The notes under the pieces were generated by a model. It was not told the origin of the DNA. It made no database searches and saw nothing but the letters and a program-made list of their open reading frames with translations. From Candidatus Poribacteria bacterium (GTDB taxonomy: Bacteria > Poribacteria > WGA-4E > WGA-3G): a stretch of 64,000 bases of DNA. The stretch is taken from assembly GCA_965200205.1 (NCBI GenBank), contig CBDAUI010000002.1, positions 520,520 to 584,519 on the forward strand, written 5' to 3'. This document shows, piece by piece, positions 43,857-59,928 of this stretch (its first letter is position 1; every line of letters begins with the position of its first letter). A program made the position numbers and the translations under genes.

Positions 43857-44447
43857 TTACTCTTTCCATCGCTGGATGAGTTTTGTATCTATGCCGAACT
43901 GATCAAGGATTTTGGTCACAACGAAGTTTAGCAAATCATCCACATCTTTTGGGAAATGATAGAACCCCGGCATTGCAGGTAACACGCACACCCCGATCTG
44001 TGCTAATTTGAGCATATTTTCGAGATGGATAGGGCTCAGGGGTGTCTCGCGCGGCACGAGTACGAGTTTCCGCCTTTCTTTGATGCATACATCCGCAGCG
44101 CGTTGGATCAGGTTGCGCGACATCCCCGCCGCGATACAAGCGATGCTTCCCATACTACAGGGGACAACGATCATCCCCTCTGTCCGGAAAGAGCCGCTGG
44201 CAATCGGTGCAGCGATGTCCGATTCGTGATGGTAGATAACCCGCGACGAAGAGACACCAATCAGCGACTCCAATTCAAAGTTATTGAGGTCTATCTCAAT
44301 CTGAAGTTCCTCTGACAAGGCGCGCGCACCGGATGCCGAGATCGTCAAATGTACCTCTATATCCTCATGTTTCGTGAGGACCTCAAGCAGGCGGATACCG
44401 TAGACCCCCGCGCTCGCACCTGTTATTCCAACAATCAACCGTTTCAA
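43857..44447 (-). CDS. ubiX: Flavin prenyltransferase
   Basis: GITGAS, ASGS, PCSM, RAADV..KERR, PRETP, P.MPGFY. Confidence 0.93.
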   Translation of the reverse strand: MKRLIVGITGASAGVYGIRLLEVLTKHEDIEVHLTISASGARALSEELQIEIDLNNFELESLIGVSSSRVIYHHESDIAAPIASGSFRTEGMIVVPCSMGSIACIAAGMSRNLIQRAADVCIKERRKLVLVPRETPLSPIHLENMLKLAQIGVCVLPAMPGFYHFPKDVDDLLNFVVTKILDQFGIDTKLIQRWKE

Positions 44448-44671
44448 TGATTACATTCTCCTTTGTGTGAAGTATGCTCGACCCTCAAAAGTGTGCGCGT
44501 TCGTAAAGCATCGCTATTATATCCGGTTACGAGAAAATTTCAAGGAAAAACCGCTATAGTTCTGATCGTTTATCTTCTGTAGGAGCGAACTGTGCTAGTA
44601 ACTCCTATTACTGACGAAAACTAACTCGTCTGAATAGTGTAATAATGTGGCTTCGGTTTTTCATTGTCTGA

Positions 44672-44703
44672 ATGCAGGTCGCGTTTGGGCGAGTACGCCG
44701 CAA
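44672..44703. repeat. 32-bp dispersed micro-element, copy 1
   Basis: atgcaggtcgcgtttgggcgagtacgccgcaa, 28/32 identical to 51729-51760. Confidence 0.8.
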
Positions 44704-45044
44704 ATCGCGGATTATCGCGGATGACACGGATTTCGCGGATTTTTTTGACTTGCCATTCCCCAAACTTATATGCTAAATTAATACCTATGTATTGAAACCC
44801 AATACGGTACTTCTTTAGTCCTGTAGAATTTATTTGCTTGGGTATTTTCCAATATGTTTATAGAAAAGCGTATCTTCACGCTCTTTAGTCCTATAAGGGG
44901 TGTGTGTTTAAAGAAGCGTTATCTTTTCTATCAAAGCTCCGACATGACGATATGTTTGTGTTTTTTGAAATTCGGTTGGTATTTATTCGCTGGAAATGGT
45001 ATTATTACTCTAAAGAAAAACTACATCGTGTAGGAGGAAAAACA

Positions 45045-46238
45045 ATGAGAAGACCACTAAAGATATTCATTACCTATTCACATGCAGATACGAAAGCAAA
45101 GGACAGATTAATAGCGCATTTGGATGTCCTGAAGCAAAATGGCCTGATTGATATTTGGCATGACAACAACCTTAGGCCTGGGGACGCGTGGCGTGATACC
45201 ATTTTCAGTAATCTTGCGGATTCAGATATTCTGCTCTACCTTGTTTCTGCTTCTAGCCTTGGTTCTGAAATGTGCTATATGGAATTAGTCCGGTCATTGG
45301 ACAGAGACACAAGGGTCATCCCGATTATCCTTGAAGATTGCGATTGGCCCAATCACCCACTCAGTGATTTTGAAGTGCTTCCGGATAAAGGCAAGCCTAT
45401 TAGCAAGTGGCAATCTGAGAGTGAAGGGTGGCAAAACGTGATATATGGTATACGGAGAGTTGTTGACATAATGCAGGCTCAGGCTGATCTTTCGTCCGGT
45501 ATACTTCCAGAAAATATACGGGCGGAAAAAATGTTCCAACGCGGACATACTCTGATGATGCTAGGACAATTTAATGAAGCCCTAGAGACATACTCGAATG
45601 CATTTAAACTGAACCCACATCATAATAGTGCCTATGCTAACATCTTTTTGGTGCAGCTTCTCATAAAGAGAGAACGGCATCTTCGGGATATAACTAAACC
45701 TGTTGTCCTAACGGAAGGGTTGTTGGATGAGCAGTACATTCAAACAGCTCTAACTTTATTGGGTGAGGTAAAACTTTTAAACTCCTTGGAGATTAGATCT
45801 GTAGGCCTCAAGGTTAACAAAGGGACTCAGGATGGAGGAAAGGCGGGATTAGATAAAATCCGAAATGTTTACGTAGCAAATTCGTGGCTTTTTCATCAAC
45901 CGATATTGCTTCTTTACGATTGTGATACGAATAAGCAAGAAGAGGACTCTGAGAGGCTTTGGGTGCGTTTGATTCCAGAGAATCGGGGAAATACCAAAGT
46001 AAAAGGCGGAATTGAAAATCTCTTTCCAGAAGAACTTTTTCAGGATTGTTTTTACCATGAAAAGATTAAGGTAAGAAATGACGGTGGAAAAAGCATAGAT
46101 AATGAACTTGATAAGCCAAGATTTTGCCGATGGATTTGTGAAGATCGACGGAATCCCGCCGATTTTGAGGGATTTAAAGAAGTCGTGAAAATTCTTAAAG
46201 AGTTTGTTGAATTCCGTCACTCTCCGACATCCGAATAG
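45045..46238 (+). CDS. TIR domain + TPR + TOPRIM (OLD-like) fusion protein
   Basis: TIR: IFITYSHAD, WHD..L.PG, S.MC..EL, VIPIIL..C.W. TPR: RGHTL..LGQF.EA...Y..A..LNP. TOPRIM: VLTEG..D, YDCD, IENLF. Start ATG 45045 after AGGAGG. Confidence 0.8.
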   Translation: MRRPLKIFITYSHADTKAKDRLIAHLDVLKQNGLIDIWHDNNLRPGDAWRDTIFSNLADSDILLYLVSASSLGSEMCYMELVRSLDRDTRVIPIILEDCDWPNHPLSDFEVLPDKGKPISKWQSESEGWQNVIYGIRRVVDIMQAQADLSSGILPENIRAEKMFQRGHTLMMLGQFNEALETYSNAFKLNPHHNSAYANIFLVQLLIKRERHLRDITKPVVLTEGLLDEQYIQTALTLLGEVKLLNSLEIRSVGLKVNKGTQDGGKAGLDKIRNVYVANSWLFHQPILLLYDCDTNKQEEDSERLWVRLIPENRGNTKVKGGIENLFPEELFQDCFYHEKIKVRNDGGKSIDNELDKPRFCRWICEDRRNPADFEGFKEVVKILKEFVEFRHSPTSE

Positions 46239-46269
46239 GGGCCTGTCTATCTCGCCCAAAGGAAAACGC

Positions 46270-49149
46270 ATGAATCACCAACACACCAACAGCGAAGACA
46301 CTATCACCACCTTATTTGTTGAAATCTTGATGCCGATGAGTGCGACGTGGAATATCCTCGAGCAGACAACAAAACCACTCGTCGAAAATCAAAGAAGACC
46401 CGATGTCATCATCCGCACAGTTGAACGATACCCGATAGCAGTTGAAGTGAAAATCGACTACAAGCGCAGTCCTAATGAAACCGGCGAAGAGCAGGCACGC
46501 GAACGTTACTTGGGCAAAACCCTCCGCACAACGTTGGAAACAATTGCCAGCGCAATAGCGATTCGCCTTCCCCACAGGTTCCGCACGATGCCTCGCGACG
46601 AAATCCGCGAAAATTTAGAGGGATCGAATGATTTCGCATACACACTCCTCAACATTGACGAACCCCAGAGATTCCCGAAAAAAGGCTGGCTTTACGGCAG
46701 CATTTCCGACATCGCAACCGCTATCCGTATCGGAGCAACACCTATTACCACGATTGAGAGGGCTGCCGAGGTGCTTGAACAGGGCATCTCTGATGCTGCC
46801 AATATCGTCAATACTGCGATCCAAGACCGACCCTATATCGGTAAAAGGATCGGCGAACTCCTCGTACAGGAACCTGGTGAGCAGACAACACAGATGGCGA
46901 TGCTGATTATCAGTAACGCTTTGGTGTTTCAGAGTTCCCTCGCGCGTAAGCCAGATTTGGAAGCTGTCCCATCTCTTAGTGAACTCACTGCGGATTATGG
47001 GCAGCTCGATTCAGACGAAGTCCTCAGCGCATGGCGAGAAATCCAAAAGGTTAACTACGCCCCGATTTTCAAGGTTGCCTATAACCTTGTCGAAACGCTT
47101 TCTGCCGATGATAAACTGGTCGGTGAGATCTTAAGCGTGCTACGCGATACCGCACGCGAGTTGGAGAAGATGGGACTTGCACAAGAGCATGAACTCGCCG
47201 GTATTGTGTTTCAGAAACTCATTGACAATCGGAAAATTCTCAAGGCGAACTATACCCGTCCTGAATCCTCAGCGCTGCTCTGTGCCCTCGCGTTACCAGA
47301 ACTCAAAAAGGATCCGAAAAAATTGAAAATCGCAGATTTTGCCTGCGGGACCGGTTCGCTGCTTAACGGTGTTTATCAACGGGTTCTGATGCTTTATGAA
47401 CAAACCGGTGGTAAAGGCGAGACTATCCATCAATATATGATGGAAAAAAATCTCGTCGGATGTGATATTCTGCCGAACGCTGCACACTTGACTGCATCCA
47501 TCATTGCCAGTACCTATCCTGATGTCCGTATCGGCGGCACGCGCATCCACACAATGCCGTATGGTACACAGCGTGCGGATGGTCTTTATGCCATCGGTGC
47601 CCTCAATTTGCTTAGCGACCCGGCAGGGACGCTCCCGCTAATATTAGATACAACAGAAACTACCACAGGACACGGATCTGAAACCACAGACCTTCGGGAC
47701 GCATTCCAACATGGCGAATTTGACATTGTTATTCAAAATCCACCCTATACGCGCACAGGTGATAATAACGCAAATGTACCAAAGAGTATTTTTGGTGACA
47801 AGAAGGCAGCGGCAGCAATGCGAGATTCGCTCAGAGCACAGAAATGCCAACTCATAGGCAATAACACAGGATTGGGGGCACATTTCGTTGACCTTGCCGA
47901 CAGGATGTTGAAGCGAAACGGCAAAATAGCATTTGTGCTACCTGCAACGGCTATCACTGGCAGTAGTTGGTACAAGGTGCGAAAGTTGTGGGCAGAGGAA
48001 TATCGCGATGTGCTTGTGGTCACGATCGCGGATGCAAACATCGAGAAAAGCGCGTTTTCAGCGGATACGGGGATGGCAGAGTGTCTCGTTGTAGCAACAA
48101 AAGGCGTAGGTAATAACACAGGGCAGGGAACGTTCGTCTGTCTGACGCGCTCTCCTGAGGGTGAATTGGAGGCATTGGAAGTCGCAAAGCAGATTCGTGA
48201 GAAACCCAAGGCCATCCGCCATCTTGGAGACAGCCTGTCCGGGGGTGATCCACTCATGATAGGCGATGCGAGTATAGGGCATGTTATCTCTGCACCGCTT
48301 GTCCTGAGCCATGCGGGTTGGGCTGTTTCCCGTGTGAAAGACATGGTTGCCGTTCAAGCTGCATACCATCTCGCGAACGGATACATACGGCTTCCACGTC
48401 AGAGAGACGCTATTGAATTTTCATATTGTCCCGCGTCAGAAATTGGCACCCTCGGGACAGGTCCAAAAGACATATACGGTGGCGGCGGTAGAGGGGCGTT
48501 TGATGTAGAAAAGGGTTGTCTCGACACAGCACAGTATCCTGCCTTATGGCATGTGCATTCGGATTCGCAACGGATGATGCTTGTCGCCCCAGATTCTCAC
48601 GCACGCCCGCGCCCAAATTCGGACGAAAAGGTTCAGCGAATTTTGAAATTGAATAGTCGAACGCATTATAATATGGAATTGCAGTTTAATGCAAATTCGC
48701 TAGCAGTGATGTTCAGGGAAGAAAAGGCACTCGGCATCGCCTTAATCCCTAACGTTTGCTTCACGGACGAAAAATACGAGTATGCGTGGACACTGTGGTG
48801 CAACTCAACTTTTGGCTTGCTTATGCATTGGATGCATAGCGGTACGCAGCAGCAAGGCCGCGGGAAAATGAGTCGTGCTGCCTTTGATGCAATGCCGACT
48901 TTGGATGTCCGCAGGCTCTCCGCTGATGGATTAGTAAATGCGGAACAGATTTTTAACGCGTTGAAGGACAGAGAGCTGCGAGCTTTTCATCAGGTGGATA
49001 CAGATCCGACACGTCATAAGTTGGATCGGTTGTTGTTGTCAGCGGTACTTGGCATTACGGAGGCGGAGCGTCCGGATGTACATGAAGGTCTTGCGTTGCT
49101 TCGGAAGATGCTATCACAAGAGCCGAGTATTCACGGCGGGAAGAAGTAG
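46270..49149 (+). CDS. Type IIG-like restriction-modification enzyme (PD-ExK nuclease + N6-adenine methyltransferase)
   Basis: RPDV...VEVK nuclease motif, YT motif X, DFACGTG motif I, NPPY motif IV, AFVLP. Start ATG 46270 after AAAGGA. Confidence 0.85.
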   Translation: MNHQHTNSEDTITTLFVEILMPMSATWNILEQTTKPLVENQRRPDVIIRTVERYPIAVEVKIDYKRSPNETGEEQARERYLGKTLRTTLETIASAIAIRLPHRFRTMPRDEIRENLEGSNDFAYTLLNIDEPQRFPKKGWLYGSISDIATAIRIGATPITTIERAAEVLEQGISDAANIVNTAIQDRPYIGKRIGELLVQEPGEQTTQMAMLIISNALVFQSSLARKPDLEAVPSLSELTADYGQLDSDEVLSAWREIQKVNYAPIFKVAYNLVETLSADDKLVGEILSVLRDTARELEKMGLAQEHELAGIVFQKLIDNRKILKANYTRPESSALLCALALPELKKDPKKLKIADFACGTGSLLNGVYQRVLMLYEQTGGKGETIHQYMMEKNLVGCDILPNAAHLTASIIASTYPDVRIGGTRIHTMPYGTQRADGLYAIGALNLLSDPAGTLPLILDTTETTTGHGSETTDLRDAFQHGEFDIVIQNPPYTRTGDNNANVPKSIFGDKKAAAAMRDSLRAQKCQLIGNNTGLGAHFVDLADRMLKRNGKIAFVLPATAITGSSWYKVRKLWAEEYRDVLVVTIADANIEKSAFSADTGMAECLVVATKGVGNNTGQGTFVCLTRSPEGELEALEVAKQIREKPKAIRHLGDSLSGGDPLMIGDASIGHVISAPLVLSHAGWAVSRVKDMVAVQAAYHLANGYIRLPRQRDAIEFSYCPASEIGTLGTGPKDIYGGGGRGAFDVEKGCLDTAQYPALWHVHSDSQRMMLVAPDSHARPRPNSDEKVQRILKLNSRTHYNMELQFNANSLAVMFREEKALGIALIPNVCFTDEKYEYAWTLWCNSTFGLLMHWMHSGTQQQGRGKMSRAAFDAMPTLDVRRLSADGLVNAEQIFNALKDRELRAFHQVDTDPTRHKLDRLLLSAVLGITEAERPDVHEGLALLRKMLSQEPSIHGGKK

Positions 49150-49584
49150 AAAGTTAAGTTGGACGCGTAGCATTTGGTGTCTGTCAGAATCAGGGATTTT
49201 CAGATTTTCAGAATTGGACATCTTTCTTGACTGAAAACTGCTTTTGTGAAATTGCCGTAATATTTCTTAACTTTACCTTACTGCCCGAATCACTATCGGA
49301 AACCCGATTTTAACTTATTTCCGTTGACGAGGTTTCCGACCTCGTCTTATTTTCCTTATATTTTATCCTTGCGCAATACCAATCGTAAAGGGTCTTTTTC
49401 GCTTTTTAACTCAGTCGGGATGGCATGTGTAGAAAAGTATTCCTGCCTCTCCGCAAAACCTCAGTGGGGCGGCATGTTCATGAATTTCGCTGATGCGGTT
49501 GACATCTGTCCGCCAAATGCCCTACAATAATGTTAAACGAAATGGATATTATAATTGAAATCATTGATTTGTGAAAGGAAGTCT

Positions 49585-51489
49585 ATGTATCTCGCCGATC
49601 TCTATCTCGAAAACACCGGTCCCATCTCAAAATGCCACGTTGAGATGCCTTTTGCTGACAACAGGGATCCTTTACCTGTCGTGATTGTCGGTCCCAACGG
49701 ATCTGGCAAAAGTATTTTTCTCTCTTACATTATTGATGCCCTGATAGAGTTCGGGAAGCAAGCTTTCAGAGACATTGTGCTTCCAGACAGCTTAGAGGCA
49801 CCATATTTCCGAGTAGTTTACCCAAGCGGAATAAGAAGCGGCGAGCCGTTTAGCTTAAGCCTCCTTCATTTCAGAGTTAATGATGATAACCTATATTACT
49901 GCGAGAAATCTGGGTTACTTGATCCAATGACCTATACTTCTAATTTGAAATCTTTATTTGCTCCTGTATGGAACTGGCCAATAGAGGGGAGCCACAAACA
50001 GGTATTAACTGGTAAAGAGCACGACTTTATAAGGGAGCAGTTTGAAACGGGCGAAATTGACGTGAACGCATCACCTATTGGAAAGATCATACAAACTGAA
50101 TTACAAGAGGGCGCGTACGCCTTTTTTCCTGCGAGCCGACATGAGGATCCTGTCTGGCTTAACCCGAGAATTTTAAAAGTTAATACGGCTGCTTCTGTGA
50201 ATCGCCGGTCTAATACCGATCTTGGTAAACCTCTTCAAGTGGAAACCTGTGCTGATGAAAATATTGGTTGGATATTAGATGTGTTGTTTGATGCATCAGT
50301 TGATTATGATATAATACGGAAACTTCAAGAAGAGGAAGTTCTAAGTGATGAGGAGATAACAAACTGGAACAACTTGCCTCCCCTTCAACAATCTCGACAT
50401 AATATTGAACAGATCTTGCAAGGGGTACTGCAAGATAAACGGGTTAAATTGATACGAAGACTTCGGAATAGTCGAGAACTGAGACTTGCTATACAGTTGA
50501 GTAATGGGCGGGTAATACCTAACTTACAGTCATTATCACAAGGACAATCACAGTTGTTCCACCTATTTACTACAATTATTAGATATGGTGAAGACACTGA
50601 TATCAACAAAAGTATTCGTCTTCGCGATATTACAGGTCTTGTTGTCATAGATGAAATTGATGTTCATCTACATCCGACACTCCAGCATAGTGTCGTTCCA
50701 AAACTCATAAAATTATTTCCCAAGGTCCAATTCATCATATCCTCTCACTCGCCACTGTTTTTACTCGGGATGGAAAAGGAGTTCGGAACAGACGGGCTTG
50801 ACATTCGAAAGTTACCGGATGGAGATAAAATAAATAGTGAAGAGTATCCTGAATTCAGAAGTACTTTTGAATATTACCAAGCAACAGGACGTTTTGAAGA
50901 AGAGATAAAACAACGTTTTGCGAATATGACGAAACCTGTAGTCCTGACAGAAGGCAAGACTGATGCAAAGTACATTCAAACAGCACTGGAACTGCTTGAG
51001 GAGCAAGAACTCTTGAATTCTTTGGAGATTAGACCTGTTGGTGATGAAGAAGACGATGGGGACCGGGGTGGAGGAGAGCCAGGATTGGATAAATTCCGAG
51101 ATTTTTATTCAGTGAAATCCTCCCTTTTTCATCAACCAATATTACTTCTTTATGATTGGGATACAAGAAAGAAACCAGACCAAATTGAGAAGCTTTGGAT
51201 AAGATCAATTCCAAAGAACGCTGACGACACCAAGGACAAGGAGGGAATCGAAAATCTTTTTCCTCAATACCTTTTCAAGACTTGTTTCTATTATGAGAAA
51301 ACTCATAAAGGGATTCACGGCAAATCTAAGGTAATTCCAGAGTTTAAGAAACTAGAATTTTGCAAATGGATTTGTGAAGATCGGAAAGATGCTGACGATT
51401 TTACCAACTTTGGCGTAATTGTAGAAATTCTCAAGGAGTTTGTTAAAACCCGCCAACCGCCTTCAGATCAACAGCCTTCTTCTGAATAG
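49585..51489 (+). CDS. ABC-type ATPase + TOPRIM fusion (OLD/PARIS/Gabija-like)
   Basis: GPNGSGKS, LSQGQ, VIDEIDVHLHP, SSHSP, then VLTEGKTD, YDWD, IENLF. Start ATG 49585 after AAAGGA. Confidence 0.85.
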   Translation: MYLADLYLENTGPISKCHVEMPFADNRDPLPVVIVGPNGSGKSIFLSYIIDALIEFGKQAFRDIVLPDSLEAPYFRVVYPSGIRSGEPFSLSLLHFRVNDDNLYYCEKSGLLDPMTYTSNLKSLFAPVWNWPIEGSHKQVLTGKEHDFIREQFETGEIDVNASPIGKIIQTELQEGAYAFFPASRHEDPVWLNPRILKVNTAASVNRRSNTDLGKPLQVETCADENIGWILDVLFDASVDYDIIRKLQEEEVLSDEEITNWNNLPPLQQSRHNIEQILQGVLQDKRVKLIRRLRNSRELRLAIQLSNGRVIPNLQSLSQGQSQLFHLFTTIIRYGEDTDINKSIRLRDITGLVVIDEIDVHLHPTLQHSVVPKLIKLFPKVQFIISSHSPLFLLGMEKEFGTDGLDIRKLPDGDKINSEEYPEFRSTFEYYQATGRFEEEIKQRFANMTKPVVLTEGKTDAKYIQTALELLEEQELLNSLEIRPVGDEEDDGDRGGGEPGLDKFRDFYSVKSSLFHQPILLLYDWDTRKKPDQIEKLWIRSIPKNADDTKDKEGIENLFPQYLFKTCFYYEKTHKGIHGKSKVIPEFKKLEFCKWICEDRKDADDFTNFGVIVEILKEFVKTRQPPSDQQPSSE

Positions 51490-51586
51490 CAGAACACCTA
51501 TTTTCTCATCGCAACATAAACCAAGAACCAATGCTTCTGTTAAGCGAATACCGGTAATATGTGGTTTTTCTACTATGAGCGAATAA

Positions 51587-51657
51587 GTTTGTAGTAGTGC
51601 GATTCATCGCACGTTCTAAAGGTGGACTAACGGGCAATAAATTGCCCTACTACGAAC
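51587..51657. repeat. GTAG-type double-hairpin (REPIN-like) element
   Basis: gtttgtagtag ... ctactacgaac arms enclose gtgcgat-tc-atcgcac and gggcaat-aa-attgccc. Confidence 0.7.
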
Positions 51658-51716
51658 TAATGGACTTGCAGTGTGAAAACTATGGTAGATTTTAGAATTA
51701 CCTATACACTATTGAT

Positions 51717-51768
51717 GTGCGGTTAGGGATTCAGATCGCATTTGGGCGAGTACACCGCAAAACCGCAC
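51717..51768. repeat. GTGCGGTT/AACCGCAC hairpin with the 32-bp micro-element (copy 2, 51729-51760) in its loop
   Basis: gtgcggtt-aggg-[attcagatcgcatttgggcgagtacaccgcaa]-aaccgcac. Confidence 0.8.
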
Positions 51769-51948
51769 CATAAGTATCAATTTAAGATAAAGGTCTTGGA
51801 GGCGGGTTTTGTCCAACCGATTTAAAGCAGCAAATCGGGGTTGAAAACCCCTCCCACAAGAGACACACTTCCATTATTGATGTGCTTTTTCCATGTTTCC
51901 GTGTAAAATCCGGTGCGGTTGTAAATCGCCCTACCGAGCGTGGGCCTG

Positions 51949-52049
51949 CGGATGTGCATGAGGGACTTGCGTTGCTTCGGAAAATGCTATCCCAAGAATC
52001 GAGTATTCACGGTGGGAAGAAGTCTAAGGTTAAGTTGGATGCGGAATAA
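51949..52049 (+). pseudogene. Remnant of the RM gene 3' end (copy 2)
   Basis: Encodes DVHEGLALLRKMLSQESSIHGGKKSKVKLDAE*, matching 49073-49170. Confidence 0.9.
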
Positions 52050-52208: not shown

Positions 52209-52829
52209 ATGAATCAGTCAGGCTTGTCTTTAGAAGACAGTATAACCTTAGACAGGTTAGGTCAATACTTAAAAGCATCAGAGGCACTCGCGAAGTCCGC
52301 CTTGTCGAAACAATATTGTAAGGCAGGCAGAGAATGTTTGAACCAAGCCCTAAAAAACGGGTTGAAGAAGGCCATAGATGGGTTAGAATCTGCTGTGGAA
52401 AATGCAGAGGCTTATATTAAGTTAACAGAGGATTACCTAGGTTCAGGTGTAGTAAAAGAATATCTAGACGCGGCCGTACCTCTTATAGACTCAGATGAGT
52501 GGGAGGACAGGAACAAACCCTTTCTTGAATATTGTCTAGACTTTTCAGAAGAAGCACTTGAGGCACGTCTCACCCTACATAGTACACTTAAAAATGGCTT
52601 GGAGATAGAAAAAATTAAGCGATCTATCCATGAAGTAAAAGCTTTTTTAGGGTCCGAGGATGTGAAAAATTTGAAGCAATTTATAGAAAATTATAGTCCC
52701 ACACAACCCAAACTAACGCGCGATGAAATGATCCAGTGGGGCGAACGTCTTTACGAATGGGGAGTTAGGATTGAGGAAATTTGGCAACGACTATCCGAAT
52801 TTATAGACTTATTCTCCGGGTTGCAGTAA
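52209..52829 (+). CDS. Hypothetical all-alpha protein
   Basis: RBS AAGGAG, 206-aa ORF, no recognisable motif. Confidence 0.7.
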   Translation: MNQSGLSLEDSITLDRLGQYLKASEALAKSALSKQYCKAGRECLNQALKNGLKKAIDGLESAVENAEAYIKLTEDYLGSGVVKEYLDAAVPLIDSDEWEDRNKPFLEYCLDFSEEALEARLTLHSTLKNGLEIEKIKRSIHEVKAFLGSEDVKNLKQFIENYSPTQPKLTRDEMIQWGERLYEWGVRIEEIWQRLSEFIDLFSGLQ

Positions 52830-53129: not shown

Positions 53130-53489
53130 TTAAGAATTCGACAGAGACCTCATGCGGATACGGTTTTCGTCAACAACGGAAAAATGGTTCACCCAATCTC
53201 TTTGACTTTCCAGAGCCCGAACTATACTTTGTGCAATTCCTAACGGTGAGTCTGGCGGAAGTCGAAATAGAATTATCCCGAAAGGGGCGTCAAGCCCTAA
53301 CCGGAAAACTAATTCCCCAAAATCAGTGTCAAATGTGATGAGGGTCCGCTTCTGGATTGTAGCAAGAGAAAGTACCTCTCGGTCTCTGATGCCGGGTGCC
53401 ACTTCTCCTACCCAGATAGCGTCGTGTCCGCGAGAACAAATAAATTCCACAACTAAACGCGGGATATTTTCATCTGCTAATAGACGCAT
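53130..53489 (-). CDS. DUF5615-family PIN-like toxin
   Basis: MRLLADEN.P, G.D, D.EVL..A....R.LITFD.DFG. Confidence 0.88.
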   Translation of the reverse strand: MRLLADENIPRLVVEFICSRGHDAIWVGEVAPGIRDREVLSLATIQKRTLITFDTDFGELVFRLGLDAPFGIILFRLPPDSPLGIAQSIVRALESQRDWVNHFSVVDENRIRMRSLSNS

Positions 53490-53745
53490 CGGTTAATTTC
53501 AGTGGATGTTGATAGTCTTTTTGCGTCCGTAATACCGCGCTCGCGTACGCAAGACAGGCGTGAATATCCGCTTGCACGATGTGGGGATAATTCTCAAGAA
53601 TCTCTGCCTCAGTCCAACCGTGTCCGAGTAAACCGACGATGAATTCAACGGCTAATCGTGTGCCTTTTATCACAGGTTTTCCTGTGAGGATATTCTTGTC
53701 ACAGATGATCCGTTCTGCTAATGTTCGAGGGAGCTGACCTTGCAT
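53470..53745 (-). CDS. DUF433-family antitoxin
   Basis: GKPVIKGTRL.V, EIL..YP, DI.ACL.YA. Overlaps the toxin gene. Confidence 0.9.
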   Translation of the reverse strand: MQGQLPRTLAERIICDKNILTGKPVIKGTRLAVEFIVGLLGHGWTEAEILENYPHIVQADIHACLAYASAVLRTQKDYQHPLKLTDASISR

Positions 53746-53854: not shown

Positions 53855-53870
53855 ATAAAAGTGAAGGGTC

Positions 53871-54176
53871 ATGAGTAGGGCCACCTTTAACGCGATGCCT
53901 ACGCTGGATGTTCGTCAACTCTCTACTGAAGCATTAGCAAACGCAGATCAAATTTTCAACACACTGAAATGTGAGGATATGCTACCGTTTAATCAGATGG
54001 ACGCGGATCCGACGCGTCACGAACTGGATCGGCTACTGTTATCTGAGGTCTTGGGTATCACGGAATCGGGGTGTCCGGATGTGCATGAAGGACTTGCGTT
54101 GCTTCGGAAGATGCTATCCCAAGAGCCGAGTATTCACGGTGGGAAGAAGTCAAGGGTTAAGTTGGATGCTTCTTAG
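53871..54176 (+). pseudogene. Remnant of the RM gene 3' end (copy 3, 101 codons, frame intact)
   Basis: 70/93 aa identical by manual alignment to the C-terminus encoded at 48868-49146. Confidence 0.9.
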
Positions 54177-54330: not shown

Positions 54331-54960
54331 ATGCAATCAATCCATTATAACGACAATGTGTTTATCAATTGTCCATTTGATTCAGTTTACAAACCGTTGT
54401 TTGACGCAATGGTATTCACAATACACGATTGCGGTTTTATCCCGCGTTGTGCGCTTGAAGAAGAAGACGCGAGCCAAGTTCGGATAGATAAAATTTATAG
54501 CATTATTGCAGATTGCCGTTATGGAATTCACGACATATCCAGAACGGAATTAGATGAAGGTTCGGGACTTCCTCGGTTTAATATGCCGCTGGAATTGGGT
54601 GTTTTCCTCGGAGCCAAGAAATTTGGTATAAAGGAACAAGAAAGAAAAAAGTGCCTGATACTGGATACTGAGCCGTATAGGTATCAACAATTTATTTCTG
54701 ATATTGCTGGGCAAGATATTCAGGCACATAACGATAGTTCCAGAGAAGTTATAACACACGTCCGGAATTGGCTGCGTAATGCCTCAAGACGTGAGACAAT
54801 TCCGGGCGGAAGCATCATTTGGAGACGTTACCGGGATTTTAGAAGGGATTTGCCCCAAACAGCGCGAGAGTATCAGTTAACAGTTGAAGACTTGATTTTT
54901 AATGATTATACTTTGATGGTTACGCGATGGTTGGGAACTAAGGCAAACCACTTATCGTAA
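54331..54960 (+). CDS. Hypothetical protein, probable TIR-like / nucleoside 2-deoxyribosyltransferase-like fold
   Basis: VFINCPFD, KI...I..C.YGIHDISR, PRFNMPLELG (resembles the N...ELG motif), SDIAG.D. Confidence 0.6.
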   Translation: MQSIHYNDNVFINCPFDSVYKPLFDAMVFTIHDCGFIPRCALEEEDASQVRIDKIYSIIADCRYGIHDISRTELDEGSGLPRFNMPLELGVFLGAKKFGIKEQERKKCLILDTEPYRYQQFISDIAGQDIQAHNDSSREVITHVRNWLRNASRRETIPGGSIIWRRYRDFRRDLPQTAREYQLTVEDLIFNDYTLMVTRWLGTKANHLS

Positions 54961-54983
54961 CATGTTTGACGGAGGGACTTAAA

Positions 54984-56771
54984 ATGGCAAGGGAAAGAAT
55001 TATCAAAGATACGCCGAAACGAGGAAAACTCACCAAAAGCCAAGTTAAACGCGCAGTAGAAAAGGTTGTACTCGGTAAGCCTAGTGATGGAGAGACAAAT
55101 TCTTCTGCACAATACTACAAAACACTATTGCGGTTAGGGGTCCCTGGTGTGGAACTTCAAAATCCGGATATGTTAAAAGCATTTGTTGAAACTGGCTTAC
55201 TACCCCCTGATGTACCATTGGACAATTATTCCCTAGAGCTCCGACTTTGGGTGCCCTGGCCAGCAGACAGAAAGGATTTTTCGCTTTATAAGATTAACCC
55301 AGAAACTGGGCGGGCCTATGCTGGTGCCTCAGACCTCATGATGGAGGCACGCCACACTGACAGTCACTTCCATCCTCAACTCCCTGACAGCGTTTGGGAA
55401 AACGCCCCGCGCGTTCACTGGAAGACGTTCTCCGAAGATGTTGAGGATCTTATCAAAATTATTATCCGGACGCAACACCTGCGACAACGTGCCTTGCCAC
55501 TCCTGCCCATGGGAGATTCCCGTTGGATTAGTTACTTCAACGAATTTTCAGAATACTTTGAATTTCAAAAACAAAAATTCACGACGCTAGATCCCCAGCG
55601 TGTCCTTATAGTCTGTATTGGAGGTTTTTCTTCACCTACAGAGGAACTTATGCGATGTTTGCACAAGAATCTTGATCGGAATTCAAATATCACTGAGATA
55701 ACAATGGTTATTGAGGATTGTGTTGATTTTGAAGAGGCGGAACTTGGAGAATTGATTGCCAACTCTCTTACCCCTATCAAGCTAGATGTTAACATCGCTT
55801 CTTTGGATGTGATTGCGGAAATACTTGAGCATCACCGCGCTCGCGGCAAAAGTTTATCTCTAATATTGCCGAAAAAGAATAAAGTTGATATGTTGAAGAA
55901 TTTTCGCAGCACCTATATTGACTATCTCGCCCACTTAAAAAATGGTGATCGTGAATTGCGGGCAGATGTACTTGGTACCATTCAGCGGGACTGTGACGCT
56001 CGCATTGAAAGATGGGATCGGTTTCTTCACATTGGCGTTGCGTTCTCCTTTTCCGAATCTGATTTGGAGAGGTTCATTAACATTGATAGAAACCTGCTTG
56101 ATGCTATAGATGTTGATGAAAGTATAGAGGAAGCCGTATCTAATGCAATCAAGGTTTTGGAAGAAATGCTCGGTTGGGAAAGCCATCAAAAACGCTCCAG
56201 TCAAGAAGGAAACCCTTCTCAAAATCCCGCAGTGAAAACAATCCTTCGATCATTAGATTTGAAAGAAGTTGCCGATCAATTCATGAGGGAGTATGAGTCT
56301 TTTGATAATTCGGATGAGGCGAGGCAATTTCAAATGTCGGTGCAGTCCCTTGAGGATGCACTAAATGCGCAAAAAAGCAGTCAGCAGATTAGAATTTTAT
56401 CTAAGCGGTGTCGCGTTAGTTTTCAGGATTTCGTGGATGCCGAAAAATGGAAAAAACCTCTGAAAATTCTTGAAGCGTTTTTGCAATTAGATGGCGCAGA
56501 GGAATTCATTCAAAAATGTGGTGTCCCCAAAGTGGATGGAAGCATAAACTCCCTCCAACTCGAAATAGAGGAATTCAAAACCTTAGTTGAGCTCCTTGAG
56601 GAATATAGCGAACTTAAATCGGCCGGTTTAGAAGCGAACAGACAACAAATCAAACAATGGGAAACCAAATTCAAATCGTATGTATTGGAGTTACTTGCTG
56701 ATCCTCAATCTCAGAAAATCATTCAATTTCTTACAGAGGAATTTCTTGAGCATATTAAGAATGCATTTTGA
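54984..56771 (+). CDS. Large hypothetical protein with a helical C-terminal half
   Basis: 595-aa ORF, ATG 54984 after GGAGG, no recognisable family. Confidence 0.7.
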   Translation: MARERIIKDTPKRGKLTKSQVKRAVEKVVLGKPSDGETNSSAQYYKTLLRLGVPGVELQNPDMLKAFVETGLLPPDVPLDNYSLELRLWVPWPADRKDFSLYKINPETGRAYAGASDLMMEARHTDSHFHPQLPDSVWENAPRVHWKTFSEDVEDLIKIIIRTQHLRQRALPLLPMGDSRWISYFNEFSEYFEFQKQKFTTLDPQRVLIVCIGGFSSPTEELMRCLHKNLDRNSNITEITMVIEDCVDFEEAELGELIANSLTPIKLDVNIASLDVIAEILEHHRARGKSLSLILPKKNKVDMLKNFRSTYIDYLAHLKNGDRELRADVLGTIQRDCDARIERWDRFLHIGVAFSFSESDLERFINIDRNLLDAIDVDESIEEAVSNAIKVLEEMLGWESHQKRSSQEGNPSQNPAVKTILRSLDLKEVADQFMREYESFDNSDEARQFQMSVQSLEDALNAQKSSQQIRILSKRCRVSFQDFVDAEKWKKPLKILEAFLQLDGAEEFIQKCGVPKVDGSINSLQLEIEEFKTLVELLEEYSELKSAGLEANRQQIKQWETKFKSYVLELLADPQSQKIIQFLTEEFLEHIKNAF

Positions 56772-56796
56772 GGAACTTCTGATTACGAGGAAACTG

Positions 56797-57840
56797 ATGA
56801 ATATTGATGCCTTAGACACACCAACGCTCGTCGCGGATCTCGATGTACTTGAACGGAATATCGACGGCATGGCAACGCACTGCCATCAACTCGGTATCCC
56901 GCTGCGCGTCCATACCAAAACGCATAAAGTACCAGAAATCGCGAAACTGCAAATCGCTGCCGGTTCGCGAGGTATTACCTGCCAGAAGTTAGGCGAAGCA
57001 GAAGTGATGGTAGATGCCGGAATCGACGACATCCTGATTCCGTATAATATCGTCGGGAAACCGAAACTGAAACGGTTGACTGCCCTCGTCCAACGCGCCC
57101 GCATTACCGTCGCACTCGATTCAGAAGAGACCGCAACTGGCATCTCTCAACAAGCGATTGCTGATGGCTGTGTTGCGCCTGTTATCGTGGAACTCGATAC
57201 CGGAAGTGGACGCTGTGGCGTGCAATCACCGCGAGCAGCACAACGCCTTGCACAACAGATTATGAAAATGCAAGGCATCGACTTCCAAGGTATCATGACG
57301 TATCCGAGCAACGTGCGCGCGAAGCCGTTTATCGAAGAGACGCTTGACCGTCTTTCAAGCGACGGGATTCCTGTGAACATCATCAGTGGTGGCGGCACCG
57401 GTTCGGAAGCAGCATCAAAAGAGATCGGCTGCACAGAAACCCGAAGCGGTTCTTATGCCTATGAGGGCATAACTCGTATCGGCGGCTCGGAGATGCTAAC
57501 ACCTGAACGGTGTGTCTTGCGAGTTATCGTAACTGTTGTCAGCACGCCAACGCCTGACCGGATTATCATTGATGGCGGTCAAAAGACGTTTGCCAGCTAC
57601 CCGCCAACGCCTTATGGACATATCGTTGAACACCCGGACGCTAAGATTTATGGCATGTCCGTTGAACATGGACACGTCAATGTCAGTGAATGTTCACACC
57701 AATTTAAGGTGGGTGAGCAGCTCTCGGTTATCCCGCTACATCAAGGAATGACGAGCAATCTTCACGACATACTGGTAGGCGTTCGCGGCGATAAAGTCGA
57801 GGTGATTTGGGAAATCGCAGGTAGAGGGAAAGTCTTTTAA
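56797..57840 (+). CDS. D-threonine aldolase / DSD1-family PLP enzyme (alanine racemase fold)
   Basis: LDTP, RVHTKTHK, QKLGEAE, G..RCG, SGGGT, D.G.K, EHG. Confidence 0.9.
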   Translation: MNIDALDTPTLVADLDVLERNIDGMATHCHQLGIPLRVHTKTHKVPEIAKLQIAAGSRGITCQKLGEAEVMVDAGIDDILIPYNIVGKPKLKRLTALVQRARITVALDSEETATGISQQAIADGCVAPVIVELDTGSGRCGVQSPRAAQRLAQQIMKMQGIDFQGIMTYPSNVRAKPFIEETLDRLSSDGIPVNIISGGGTGSEAASKEIGCTETRSGSYAYEGITRIGGSEMLTPERCVLRVIVTVVSTPTPDRIIIDGGQKTFASYPPTPYGHIVEHPDAKIYGMSVEHGHVNVSECSHQFKVGEQLSVIPLHQGMTSNLHDILVGVRGDKVEVIWEIAGRGKVF

Positions 57841-59541: not shown

Positions 59542-59928
59542 TCAGAATCCGCTTCCGGCTTGGAATTCAAACGCGTTCTGAATCTGTTCAAGTTTTAGTA
59601 ACTCAAGCTTCGGGGACAGATGGATCGCGATAACATCGAAACGGCAAGGTGCCTCGAATCGGTTGTGCGCGTGTAGGTATCCCATGGCGACTTTAGAAAT
59701 CTGTCGCTGTTTCTGCGTAGTTACCGCTGCTTGCGGGGTCCCGAATTTGAGGCTGCGTCGCGTTTTCACTTCTACAAAGACGATACAGTCGCCATCTTGT
59801 GCAACTATGTCGATTTCACCGCGTCCCGATCGGTAGTTCTGTGCAAGGATTTTATACCCATGTGCCTTGAGGTGCCCAGCCGCAAACGACTCACCCATTT
59901 CTGCGATATTCAACCGTGAACGATCCAT
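59542..59928 (-). CDS. yraN: YraN family endonuclease
   Basis: GE..A, GEIDIV, FVEVKTR, CRFDV. Confidence 0.92.
   Translation of the reverse strand: MDRSRLNIAEMGESFAAGHLKAHGYKILAQNYRSGRGEIDIVAQDGDCIVFVEVKTRRSLKFGTPQAAVTTQKQRQISKVAMGYLHAHNRFEAPCRFDVIAIHLSPKLELLKLEQIQNAFEFQAGSGF

Follow-up and report, generated by a model that had tools for sequence, protein, structure and literature searches.

Does a restriction enzyme that is flanked by two related nuclease proteins form a single defence machine with them, or does its position rather reflect the history of the island in which it resides? This question is raised by a locus in a 64,000-nucleotide stretch of a Candidatus Poribacteria contig (CBDAUI010000002.1), hereafter called the window, to which all positions refer. 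Here, g1 (45045-46238, 397 aa), g2 (46270-49149, 959 aa) and g3 (49585-51489, 634 aa) follow each other on the plus strand, as described in an initial annotation of the sequence; they are predicted to encode a TIR-TPR-Toprim protein, a type IIG-like restriction-modification enzyme and an ABC-ATPase-Toprim protein, respectively. While the initial annotation took the trio for a candidate three-gene defence system, our analysis suggests that the genes do not form one machine and that they probably belong to a defence island of ~12 kb (~44.7-56.8 kb) composed of three tandem cassettes with one intact g2. What the analysis shows is the homology of the two Toprim domains, their retron Eco2-type fold and catalytic residues, the composition of g2 as a type IIG-like enzyme, the presence of g2 stubs and the distribution of these genes across genomes.

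Housekeeping genes are absent from the block, which has a flavoprotein gene on one side (43857-44447, minus strand) and an alanine-racemase-like gene on the other (56680-57840); g1, g2 and g3 are its first three genes. Relatives are recorded under titles or sources that name Candidatus Poribacteria. The region 44400-51615 is identical in contigs of two public sequencing runs (X1 and X2, from one study and possibly from the source sample). As no difference was found over this region, the order g1-g2-g3 is not an obvious assembly artefact.

Stubs of g2 and the proposed order of cassettes

We propose a cassette type in which an optional gene for a Toprim fusion protein would be followed by g2 and by a small variable gene. 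Cassette 1 would consist of g1 and the intact g2, cassette 2 of g3 with a promoter-like site of its own, a remnant of a deleted g2 (its last 37 codons) and the 206-aa gene g4, and cassette 3 of the last ~101 codons of g2 together with a 209-aa and a 601-aa gene. The first of the two 3' stubs is located between g3 and g4 (51933-52046, plus strand) and matches g2 residues ~931-968 with 84% identity (tblastn) as well as the g2 ends of loci L032 and L034 with 86-90% identity (blastn). The second lies 5' of the 209-aa gene (53868-54173, plus strand) and matches g2 residues ~867-969 with up to 85% identity (tblastn). At the DNA level, the g2 3' ends appear as a three-copy repeat, D1 (48977-49166, 51853-52042 and 53980-54169, with 81% for the copy in the second stub). 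Since a g2 stub is found 3' of g3, it seems that g3 arrived as a cassette of its own or belonged to one, and the twin-Toprim bracket around g2 would exist because two cassettes adjoin, the second of which has lost its g2.

The genes 3' of the stubs are found behind g2 elsewhere as well. Genome G141 encodes a g2 with 92% identity to the intact copy of the window, and a g4-like gene (63%) comes directly after it; the order in G114 and G133 is g3-like gene, g2 and small gene. This is the slot occupied in the window by g4 (52209-52829, plus strand), for which no match was obtained in Pfam, PADLOC or NCBIfam and no usable match in the Atlas. The tail of cassette 3 (54331-56771, plus strand) is made up of the 209-aa gene (54331-54960) and the 601-aa gene, and genes 78-85% identical to them are located directly 3' of g2 in L032, L034 and L053; L039 has the 601-aa gene as well. 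Neither protein showed a family match in the library scans, and g4 and the 209-aa protein have no detectable mutual similarity (E 0.53). Overall, the position 3' of g2 behaves as a variable defence-gene slot.

With 31 nt between them, g1 and g2 show an operon-like packing. Between g2 and g3, we found a terminator-like hairpin (49326-49346, plus strand; a 9-bp stem with five GC pairs, followed by TTATTTTCC) and a promoter-like site (49499-49528, plus strand; TTGACA-18-TACAAT, 11/12 matches, 57 nt 5' of the g3 ATG), both of which are consensus matches only. Judged by these two elements, g3 looks like a transcription unit separate from g2.

One feature that would favour a unit of three genes is a dispersed repeat of family D6 (33 nt, 88% identical), copies of which are located at the left island edge (44672-44704, plus strand) and at the place from which the body of the second g2 is missing (51729-51761, plus strand), so that they flank exactly g1-g2-g3. 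However, its 24-nt core (GCRTTTGGGCGAGTACRCCGCAAA) has 23 copies in the genome at no more than two mismatches, compared to none for a reversed control, and on account of these genome-wide copies, we rejected the idea that the two copies delimit a mobile unit of g1, g2 and g3. Contigs of the public runs break at the repeat, and the depth is raised ~3.5-fold at 51.6, 52.9-53.0 and 44.7 kb; contig breaks together with raised depth are found specifically over 51590-51850.

Distribution of the Toprim genes and g2 in the phylum

In order to see whether the three genes travel together, their distribution can be compared across the 176 genomes of the phylum. The Toprim domain is present in 33 of them, nearly always once, in open reading frames (ORFs) of ~600-645 aa; within the window's own genome, it occurs in g1 and g3 only. 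Among these 33 genomes, 31 harbour g3-like genes and two the TIR type, namely the window's own (G000) and G131, whereas both types are combined in one genome only, that of the window. G131 encodes the TIR type together with g2, and no ATPase type was found in the search of this genome. Its gene pair is 74% identical to g1-g2 over 4.1 kb, while the flanks differ. The initial annotation had proposed to examine whether TIR-Toprim genes co-occur with ATPase-Toprim and type IIG genes in other genomes; TIR-Toprim and restriction gene were seen together a second time, and the joint presence of ATPase-Toprim was restricted to 1/33 genomes.

g2-like genes are far more common than Toprim genes (128/176 genomes, often in several copies per genome), and none of the 20 closest g2 relatives that were fetched (75-92% identical) has a Toprim gene in its 20-kb locus. 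Viewed from the Toprim side, g2 sequence is located directly 3' of the Toprim gene, in the same orientation and with a gap of ~30 nt or an overlap, at six of 31 loci. These comprise g1 of the window and its counterpart in G131 (TIR type), the genes of G114, G133 and G151 (ATPase type) and g3 of the window, which is followed by the stub only. The remaining 25 loci show no g2 within 1.5 kb downstream, three of them ending at a contig edge; in G033, the Toprim gene and g2 are divergent. A g3-like gene of G056 is located directly 3' of an unrelated type IIG gene (Eco57I + TaqI_C, 1243 aa).

Further neighbourhoods of Toprim genes were recorded. In G151 (L033 9103-12736), both partners are damaged, with the g3-like gene split into 162 and 433 aa and g2 ending at 618 aa. 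ATPase-Toprim genes are directly followed in four genomes by a gene for an 888-981-aa Trypsin-TPR-TIR-TPR protein (L038 6920-9865, L040 6592-9501, L042 10948-13614 and L049 10881-13826), the TIR-TPR part of which is 51-64% identical to the head of g1, and several ATPase-Toprim genes are located beside glyQS. Outside the phylum, most ATPase-Toprim genes stand alone, some of them on plasmids, and are annotated only as 'AAA family ATPase'. Restriction genes were detected there by BLAST at only 3/51 loci, which are near-identical (L077, 5351-15464, L089 and L090); in these, an ATPase-Toprim gene (524-535 aa) resides inside a type I operon between hsdM and DUF4145-hsdS, with hsdR further on.

The shared Toprim domain and its relation to retron Eco2

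A BLASTP comparison aligned g1 residues 211-398 with g3 residues 442-629 at 100/188 identical positions (53%), 69% positives and zero gaps (E 7e-55); the numbering of g1 in this alignment was counted from 45042 and includes one extra leading residue relative to the 397-aa protein. The initial annotation had read a gap-free match of 55-60% over ~170 aa by eye, of which the absence of gaps held, while identity and length had to be corrected. All motifs that it quoted were recovered (TKPVVLTEG, LFHQPILLLYD.DT, GIENLFP, FC.WICEDR and ILKEFV), and both copies indeed keep the Toprim acidic residues at the E, D, DxD and E positions. The DNA of the two stretches is only about two-thirds identical, from which it follows that the twin domain is not a recent duplication; a recent local duplication was rejected on these grounds and because the two domains belong to different subclades.

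The assignment to Toprim, likewise made initially from motifs, was borne out by profile searches and by structure prediction. No Pfam model matched the domain even at E 10, with the OLD-like Toprim and DUF4435 models included. In PADLOC and NCBIfam, it matched only the Toprim end of the retron Ec67/type I-C (RT-Toprim) models, with E values of 1.1e-8 (g1) and 4.8e-12 (g3) for PADLOC RT-Toprim_I-C. A PDB profile search with 21 domain sequences retrieved only retron Ec67 chains (9lm3/9i2f, E 5e-5). The AlphaFold2 model of the domain reached a predicted local distance difference test (pLDDT) score of 92.4, and the top five Foldseek matches of this model were retron Eco2 chains (E 5e-6 to 8e-5, probability 1.00, template modelling score normalised to the query 0.57-0.60), compared to a weak match to the PARIS structure 8ux9 (E 0.04).

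For Eco2, a published report (PMC12405507) assigns E374, D460 and D462 to metal A and D378, S513 and E515 to metal B, names K562 as the catalytic lysine and describes RNase activity. A hidden Markov model alignment places the catalytic residues of Eco2 on the segments TEG..D, YDxD, GIEN and K..C of the domain. Six of the seven (E374, D378, D460, D462, E515 and K562) have conserved counterparts in both copies, namely E224, D228, D292, D294, E324 and K357 in g1 and E456, D460, D524, D526, E556 and K589 in g3. The seventh, the metal-B residue S513, is replaced by glycine in both. Alignment and predicted model together show, with regard to fold as well as catalytic residues, what can be classified as a Toprim nuclease domain of the retron Eco2/Ec67 type. 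Judged by their intact ORFs and the motifs they have kept, both Toprim proteins look functional.

Domain architecture of the three proteins

The TIR domain of g1 (45063-45488, plus strand) was identified by Pfam TIR_2 (E 1.3e-14) and the PADLOC ThsB model (E 1.5e-31). Its motif SEMCYMEL contains E80, which we take to be at the position of the catalytic glutamate of characterised TIR enzymes, in agreement with what had been noted from the sequence at first; the pattern S..C..EL (S74-L81 in g1) is present in 25/25 members of the family and in 91/91 paralogues with TIR and multiple TPRs. A single TPR (45522-45641, plus strand; Pfam TPR_1/TPR_2/TPR_11, E 4e-6 to 5e-4, just under the curated cut-offs) links the TIR domain to the Toprim domain (45672-46238, plus strand), for which PADLOC, the PDB profile, the AlphaFold2 model and Foldseek all indicate the Eco2/Ec67 type. 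We found 24 full-length TIR-TPR-Toprim homologues of g1, all metagenomic and 59-79% identical, and the catalytic Toprim motifs are conserved in 24-25 of 25 family members. For two of the homologues, P0010 and P0016, the longest contig is of equal length to that of P0271 (5914) and P0303 (764541), respectively, which is no more than a weak hint. TIR-TPR proteins are abundant in the phylum in general (481 matches), with most matches spanning only the first half of g1.

The TIR-TPR-Toprim architecture matches no named defence system: as the initial annotation had presumed, none was found among the library models or in the literature, where neither TIR-Toprim wording nor broader queries retrieved a description. 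If this is true, a TIR-TPR head on a Toprim domain would be new to the defence catalogues and the literature searched.

The N-terminal part of g3 was assigned to the ABC ATPases by Pfam (AAA_21 and AAA_15), by PADLOC, where PtuA models reached E values down to 3e-27 among the matches listed (25 of 114 families), and by PDB matches to PtuA and the retron Ec83/Ec78 ATPases. The Walker A motif comprises G36-S43, and the signature LSQGQ, Walker B and the H-loop can be read directly in the translation. The C-terminal Toprim domain (50908-51489, plus strand) matches RT-Toprim_I-C, so that the view of g3 as an ABC ATPase fused to Toprim, taken from the initial annotation, was substantiated.

Pfam matched g2 with Eco57I (E 1e-9) and N6_Mtase, while all NCBIfam matches remained far under their cut-offs. 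In an alignment of 25 paralogues (47-92% identity), P44-D45, E59-x-K61, D356-x-ACGTG (FACGTG) and N490-P-P (NPPY) are invariant; the highest variability is found at residues 630-930, and the 30 C-terminal residues are conserved. The best Foldseek matches of the g2 model were the type IIG enzyme BpuSI (E 1.5e-11) and the type IIL enzyme DrdV (E 2e-8), besides PglX/BrxX, CamA and LlaBIII. These invariant motifs (PD..ExK, FACGTG, NPPY) and the BpuSI/DrdV-like fold matches support the initial classification of g2 as a type IIG-like nuclease-methyltransferase, with cleavage and methylation as its predicted activities. The g2 family is unnamed and almost confined to the phylum. With it, a large unnamed type IIG family is documented that anchors defence hotspots in sponge symbionts. 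Some g2 paralogues (50-57% identity) are followed by a PD-Lambda-4_A-like (~1275 aa) or a Dsr1-like (1126 aa) gene (L123 8481-12311, L124 8318-12133, L134 1799-5179).

Evolution of the domain and of its heads

The Toprim domain family comprises 590 clusters at 50% identity (E up to 1e-3), mostly proteins of ~600 aa with the domain at the end. Most of those among 44 sampled members that had a Pfam match carry an ABC ATPase head, and several show no known head. An FRG-TPR head is carried by two metagenome proteins of this sample (P0126 and P0129), of which one begins with an Mrr_N-like part.

From 132 rows, with seven duplicate loci excluded, we calculated a quick maximum-likelihood tree with midpoint rooting and support values of the Shimodaira-Hasegawa-like approximate likelihood ratio test (SH-aLRT) only. 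The poribacterial Toprim domains group together (support 85). One clade (98) holds 24 of the 25 TIR-fused domains and is placed amid ATPase-fused lineages, and the two FRG-TPR proteins occupy two separate positions. The 25th TIR-fused domain, that of P0022, is sister to g3 of the window (95). This TIR-TPR-Toprim protein of 391 aa has a Toprim domain 74% identical to that of g3 and 56% identical to that of g1, as well as the acidic loop of the g3 type, which suggests recombination between the TIR-type and the ATPase-type genes. Based on the placement of the TIR and FRG-TPR fusions and on P0022, heads have apparently been swapped several times, and the Toprim domain has, as read from sequence, joined ABC-ATPase, TIR-TPR and FRG-TPR heads on several occasions. 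The proposal of one Toprim effector with different inputs thus holds on the evolutionary scale, with three heads, and is not supported as a description of one joint system at this locus. If true, the Eco2-type Toprim RNase would be a portable effector and not a speciality of retrons, given these 590 clusters and at least three kinds of sensor heads.

The opposite charge of one loop in the two copies, which had been pointed out in the initial annotation, is real, with +2 for VGLKVNKGTQDGGKAG in g1 and -6 for VGDEEDDGDRGGGEPG in g3. Across the TIR clade, the loop charge ranges from +1 to +3, and in the other lineages from -6 to +2. As P0022 combines a TIR head with the acidic g3-type loop, charge appears to follow the lineage of the Toprim domain and not pairing.

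This bears on the reading of g1, g2 and g3 as one system, in which the two Toprim proteins would assemble into a hetero-complex or together provide a backup for the type IIG enzyme. Adjacent, co-oriented genes with Toprim domains that are 53% identical and differ in loop charge would fit such a system, and P0022 suggests that the two gene types met and recombined earlier. Nevertheless, we consider this reading very improbable. The two types share a single genome out of 33, G131 manages with a g1-like gene and g2, and the 20 closest g2 loci are devoid of Toprim genes. At the locus itself, g3 is followed by a g2 stub and so would have come as a cassette of its own or belonged to one, terminator-like and promoter-like sites separate it from g2, and the flanking repeat is dispersed over the genome. 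The domains belong to different subclades and hence do not form a co-evolving local pair, and the loop charge tracks lineage. If the tandem-cassette reading is true, tandem cassettes combined with deletion can mimic a multi-gene 'system', which calls for caution in guilt-by-association discovery.

Predicted mode of action

Within the proposed tandem cassettes, g2 would methylate the cell's own DNA and cut unmodified incoming DNA, while g1 and g3 would serve as second-line effectors of abortive infection. Their Toprim domain might cut tRNA or other RNA once the N-terminal module is triggered, in analogy to Eco2, P2 OLD and PARIS AriB. The ABC ATPase would be the sensor in g3; in g1, this role could be taken by the TPR, with the TIR domain as an assembly domain and possibly an NADase. 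Each Toprim protein would act alone or with the adjoining g2. For Eco2, tRNA cutting after removal of its cage of multicopy single-stranded DNA has been reported (PMC12916289), P2 OLD is described as a tRNase (bioRxiv 10.64898/2026.07.10.737580), and AriB of PARIS is reported as an RNase/tRNase.

An alternative keeps the same architecture and assigns another chemistry to it: the Toprim domains could cut or nick DNA, as do Gabija GajA and the Vibrio class 1 OLD protein, and the TIR domain of g1 would be the main effector through NAD+ depletion. DNA nicking by OLD-family Toprims is described in two reports (PMC12392090, PMC8136825), the TIR domain keeps the position of the glutamate and matches the ThsB model (E 1.5e-31), and the metal-B serine of Eco2 is glycine in both copies. 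By contrast, the sole relatives found by sequence and fold are retron Eco2 Toprims, neither OLD-like Toprim nor DUF4435 models matched at E values up to 10, and RNase or tRNase activity is reported for Eco2, PARIS AriB and P2 OLD. On balance, we regard the DNA-directed chemistry as possible but doubtful.

Several points also weigh against our own interpretation. The number of predicted terminators in the region (9) equals the chance expectation from shuffled sequence (mean 8.8), the g2 model is of moderate quality (pLDDT 67.6, with the methyltransferase core below 50), and the Toprim tree is a quick, midpoint-rooted search with SH-aLRT support only. tRNA as the target of the Toprim domain is proposed by analogy only, and DNA is the reported substrate of some Toprims of the OLD family, such as GajA and Vibrio class 1 OLD (PMC12392090, PMC8136825). 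Moreover, g2 downstream of 6/31 Toprim genes is far above random placement, so that a functional tie between these two genes may exist, under which g3 might still work together with the one g2 that remains. Finally, the genomes are kin and share hotspots, which means that the counts behind both the enrichment and the absences are not independent.

Is the Toprim gene coupled to the restriction gene?

A functional tie could take the form of a guard consisting of two genes. The Toprim fusion protein would be coupled to the downstream type IIG enzyme and silenced by it, and would fire when an anti-restriction protein of a phage disables that enzyme; in this scenario, g3 would have been orphaned, or re-used as a guard of the single g2. 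Precedents are PrrC, which is coupled to EcoprrI, and PARIS, which answers Ocr. Apart from the six co-oriented loci with g2 directly 3' at ~30 nt or with an overlap, this idea is favoured by the g1-g2 pair of G131, which is conserved at 74% over 4.1 kb despite different flanks, by G151, where both partners are broken, by the unrelated type IIG gene directly 5' of the g3-like gene in G056 and by the ATPase-Toprim genes inside the type I system of L077, L089 and L090. In addition, HEC-04, an ABC-ATPase-Toprim fusion, is described as embedded in Hma systems (bioRxiv 10.1101/2024.01.29.577857).

On the other hand, 25 of the 31 Toprim loci lack g2 within 1.5 kb downstream (three at a contig edge), restriction genes were found outside the phylum at only 3/51 near-identical loci, and the 20 closest g2 genes are without a Toprim gene. 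g2 copies with a Toprim partner (74-87% identity) are no closer to each other than those without (75-92%), and defence genes cluster in islands anyway. The behaviour of PrrC and PARIS enters by analogy only. We therefore regard a PrrC-like link between a Toprim fusion protein and g2 as plausible for the pair, yet as a tentative proposal that may well not hold. Any 'backing up' of the type IIG enzyme, as envisaged initially, is possible only for such a pair.

A more far-reaching version, which we put forward as speculation and consider unlikely as it stands, is that in Poribacteria, the slot 5' of a fast-diversifying type IIG gene takes interchangeable guards. These would share an Eco2-type Toprim tRNase end and carry swappable heads (ABC ATPase, TIR-TPR, perhaps FRG-TPR); the restriction enzyme would keep them silent, and its inactivation by a phage would lead them to kill the cell, as a PrrC-like alarm for a single-chain type IIG enzyme. 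In the TIR-TPR guard, a single polypeptide would combine tRNA cleavage with the destruction of NAD+. If it is true that this slot is repeatedly filled by either head type, the hypothesis of a PrrC-like restriction guard becomes directly testable.

Comparison with known defence systems

Retron Eco2 (Ec67, type I-C) is the only sequence and fold relative found for the shared Toprim domain, with corresponding catalytic E, D, DxD, E and K residues. Eco2 is reported to be a caged RNase/tRNase that is freed upon infection. In contrast to Eco2, g1 and g3 have no reverse transcriptase domain and carry TIR-TPR or ABC heads, no Rfam family matched between 43 and 58 kb, and S513 is replaced by glycine. 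The absence of a reverse transcriptase domain from g1 and g3 and of Rfam families from 43-58 kb rules out membership in retron type I-C.

With an N-terminal ABC ATPase plus Toprim at the C terminus in one chain of ~600 aa, g3 resembles OLD-family proteins, HEC-04 and IbfA, and, like these, g3-like genes are widespread, often solitary and also found on plasmids. HEC-04, an ABC-ATPase-Toprim fusion found inside Hma systems, is reported to require both its ATPase and nuclease sites (bioRxiv 10.1101/2024.01.29.577857). HEC-04 and IbfA are the nearest named relatives of g3 that consist of a single gene. Unlike OLD, the ATPase of g3 is nearest to PtuA and the retron Ec83/Ec78 ATPases, and its Toprim part has no Pfam OLD-like match at E values up to 10. 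As to HEC-04, only the RT-Toprim models match the g3 Toprim in PADLOC, and there is no full-length match to an enterobacterial plasmid: a tblastn search of g3 against plasmids gave three full-length matches, none from Salmonella or E. coli.

PARIS also combines an ABC ATPase with a Toprim domain, which is a tRNase there, and responds to an anti-restriction protein. However, PARIS is encoded by two genes (AriA and AriB), its AriA model matches only the ATPase of g3 (E 4e-20) and does so more weakly than PtuA, neither Toprim domain shows an AriB or DUF4435 match, and the fold match to 8ux9 is weak. The absence of an AriB/DUF4435 match rules out membership in PARIS. In the case of Gabija, no helicase gene was found at 36.7-59.9 kb and no GajA was among the matches listed for g3 (25 of 114 families), and membership was rejected. 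The TIR domain of g1 recalls Thoeris by its match to ThsB and the conserved glutamate position, but it is fused via the TPR to a nuclease, and no ThsA gene (SIR2, Macro or SLOG) was found in the island, by which Thoeris was ruled out.

The anticodon nucleases PrrC (with EcoprrI) and RloC are tied to restriction systems and combine an ABC-type ATPase with an RNA-cutting effector beside or inside a restriction locus. A comparable pattern is seen here at the 6/31 Toprim loci and at L077, L089 and L090. The nuclease of PrrC is not a Toprim, the partner at the present locus is a single-chain type IIG enzyme, and the coupling is putative, by analogy to PrrC. The type IIG/IIL enzymes (BpuSI, DrdV/MmeI family) and PglX of BREX are the systems closest to g2, a single chain that unites a nuclease of the PD..ExK type with an N6-adenine methyltransferase of the gamma type and whose C-terminal third is variable, although its sequence similarity to the curated type IIG models is weak (Pfam Eco57I).

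Further features of the island

A conserved element is located before the first cassette (44771-44867, plus strand; blastn 87-88% to stretches of G141 and G114). In G141 it recurs ahead of g2 (L052 10350-10254) and in G114 ahead of a g3-like gene (L034 8138-8232), and the stretch upstream of g3 likewise recurs just 5' of g2 in G141. In these two genomes, a gene for an AAA_35-type ATPase (542-552 aa) precedes the cassette (L052 10341-11969, L034 6489-8147). This gene is absent from the window, though the ~95-nt element that trails it elsewhere is present at 44771-44867.

A search for tRNA genes in 36-64 kb returned none. Between cassettes 2 and 3, a DUF5615/DUF433 pair resembling a toxin-antitoxin module is encoded on the minus strand (53130-53745; Pfam E 7e-25 and 2e-22), and genes 87-92% identical to that for DUF433 are located near g2 in G172 and G114. 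The 209-aa protein of cassette 3 is a member of a widespread family of ~205-aa proteins that has no name (Atlas scores 0.98-0.99); a weak TIR-like lead comes from CAP12-PCTIR_TIR in 16% of one Atlas cluster (score 0.85). Just outside the island, a small gene with a UPF0102/NERD-like nuclease fold is located on the minus strand (59542-59928).

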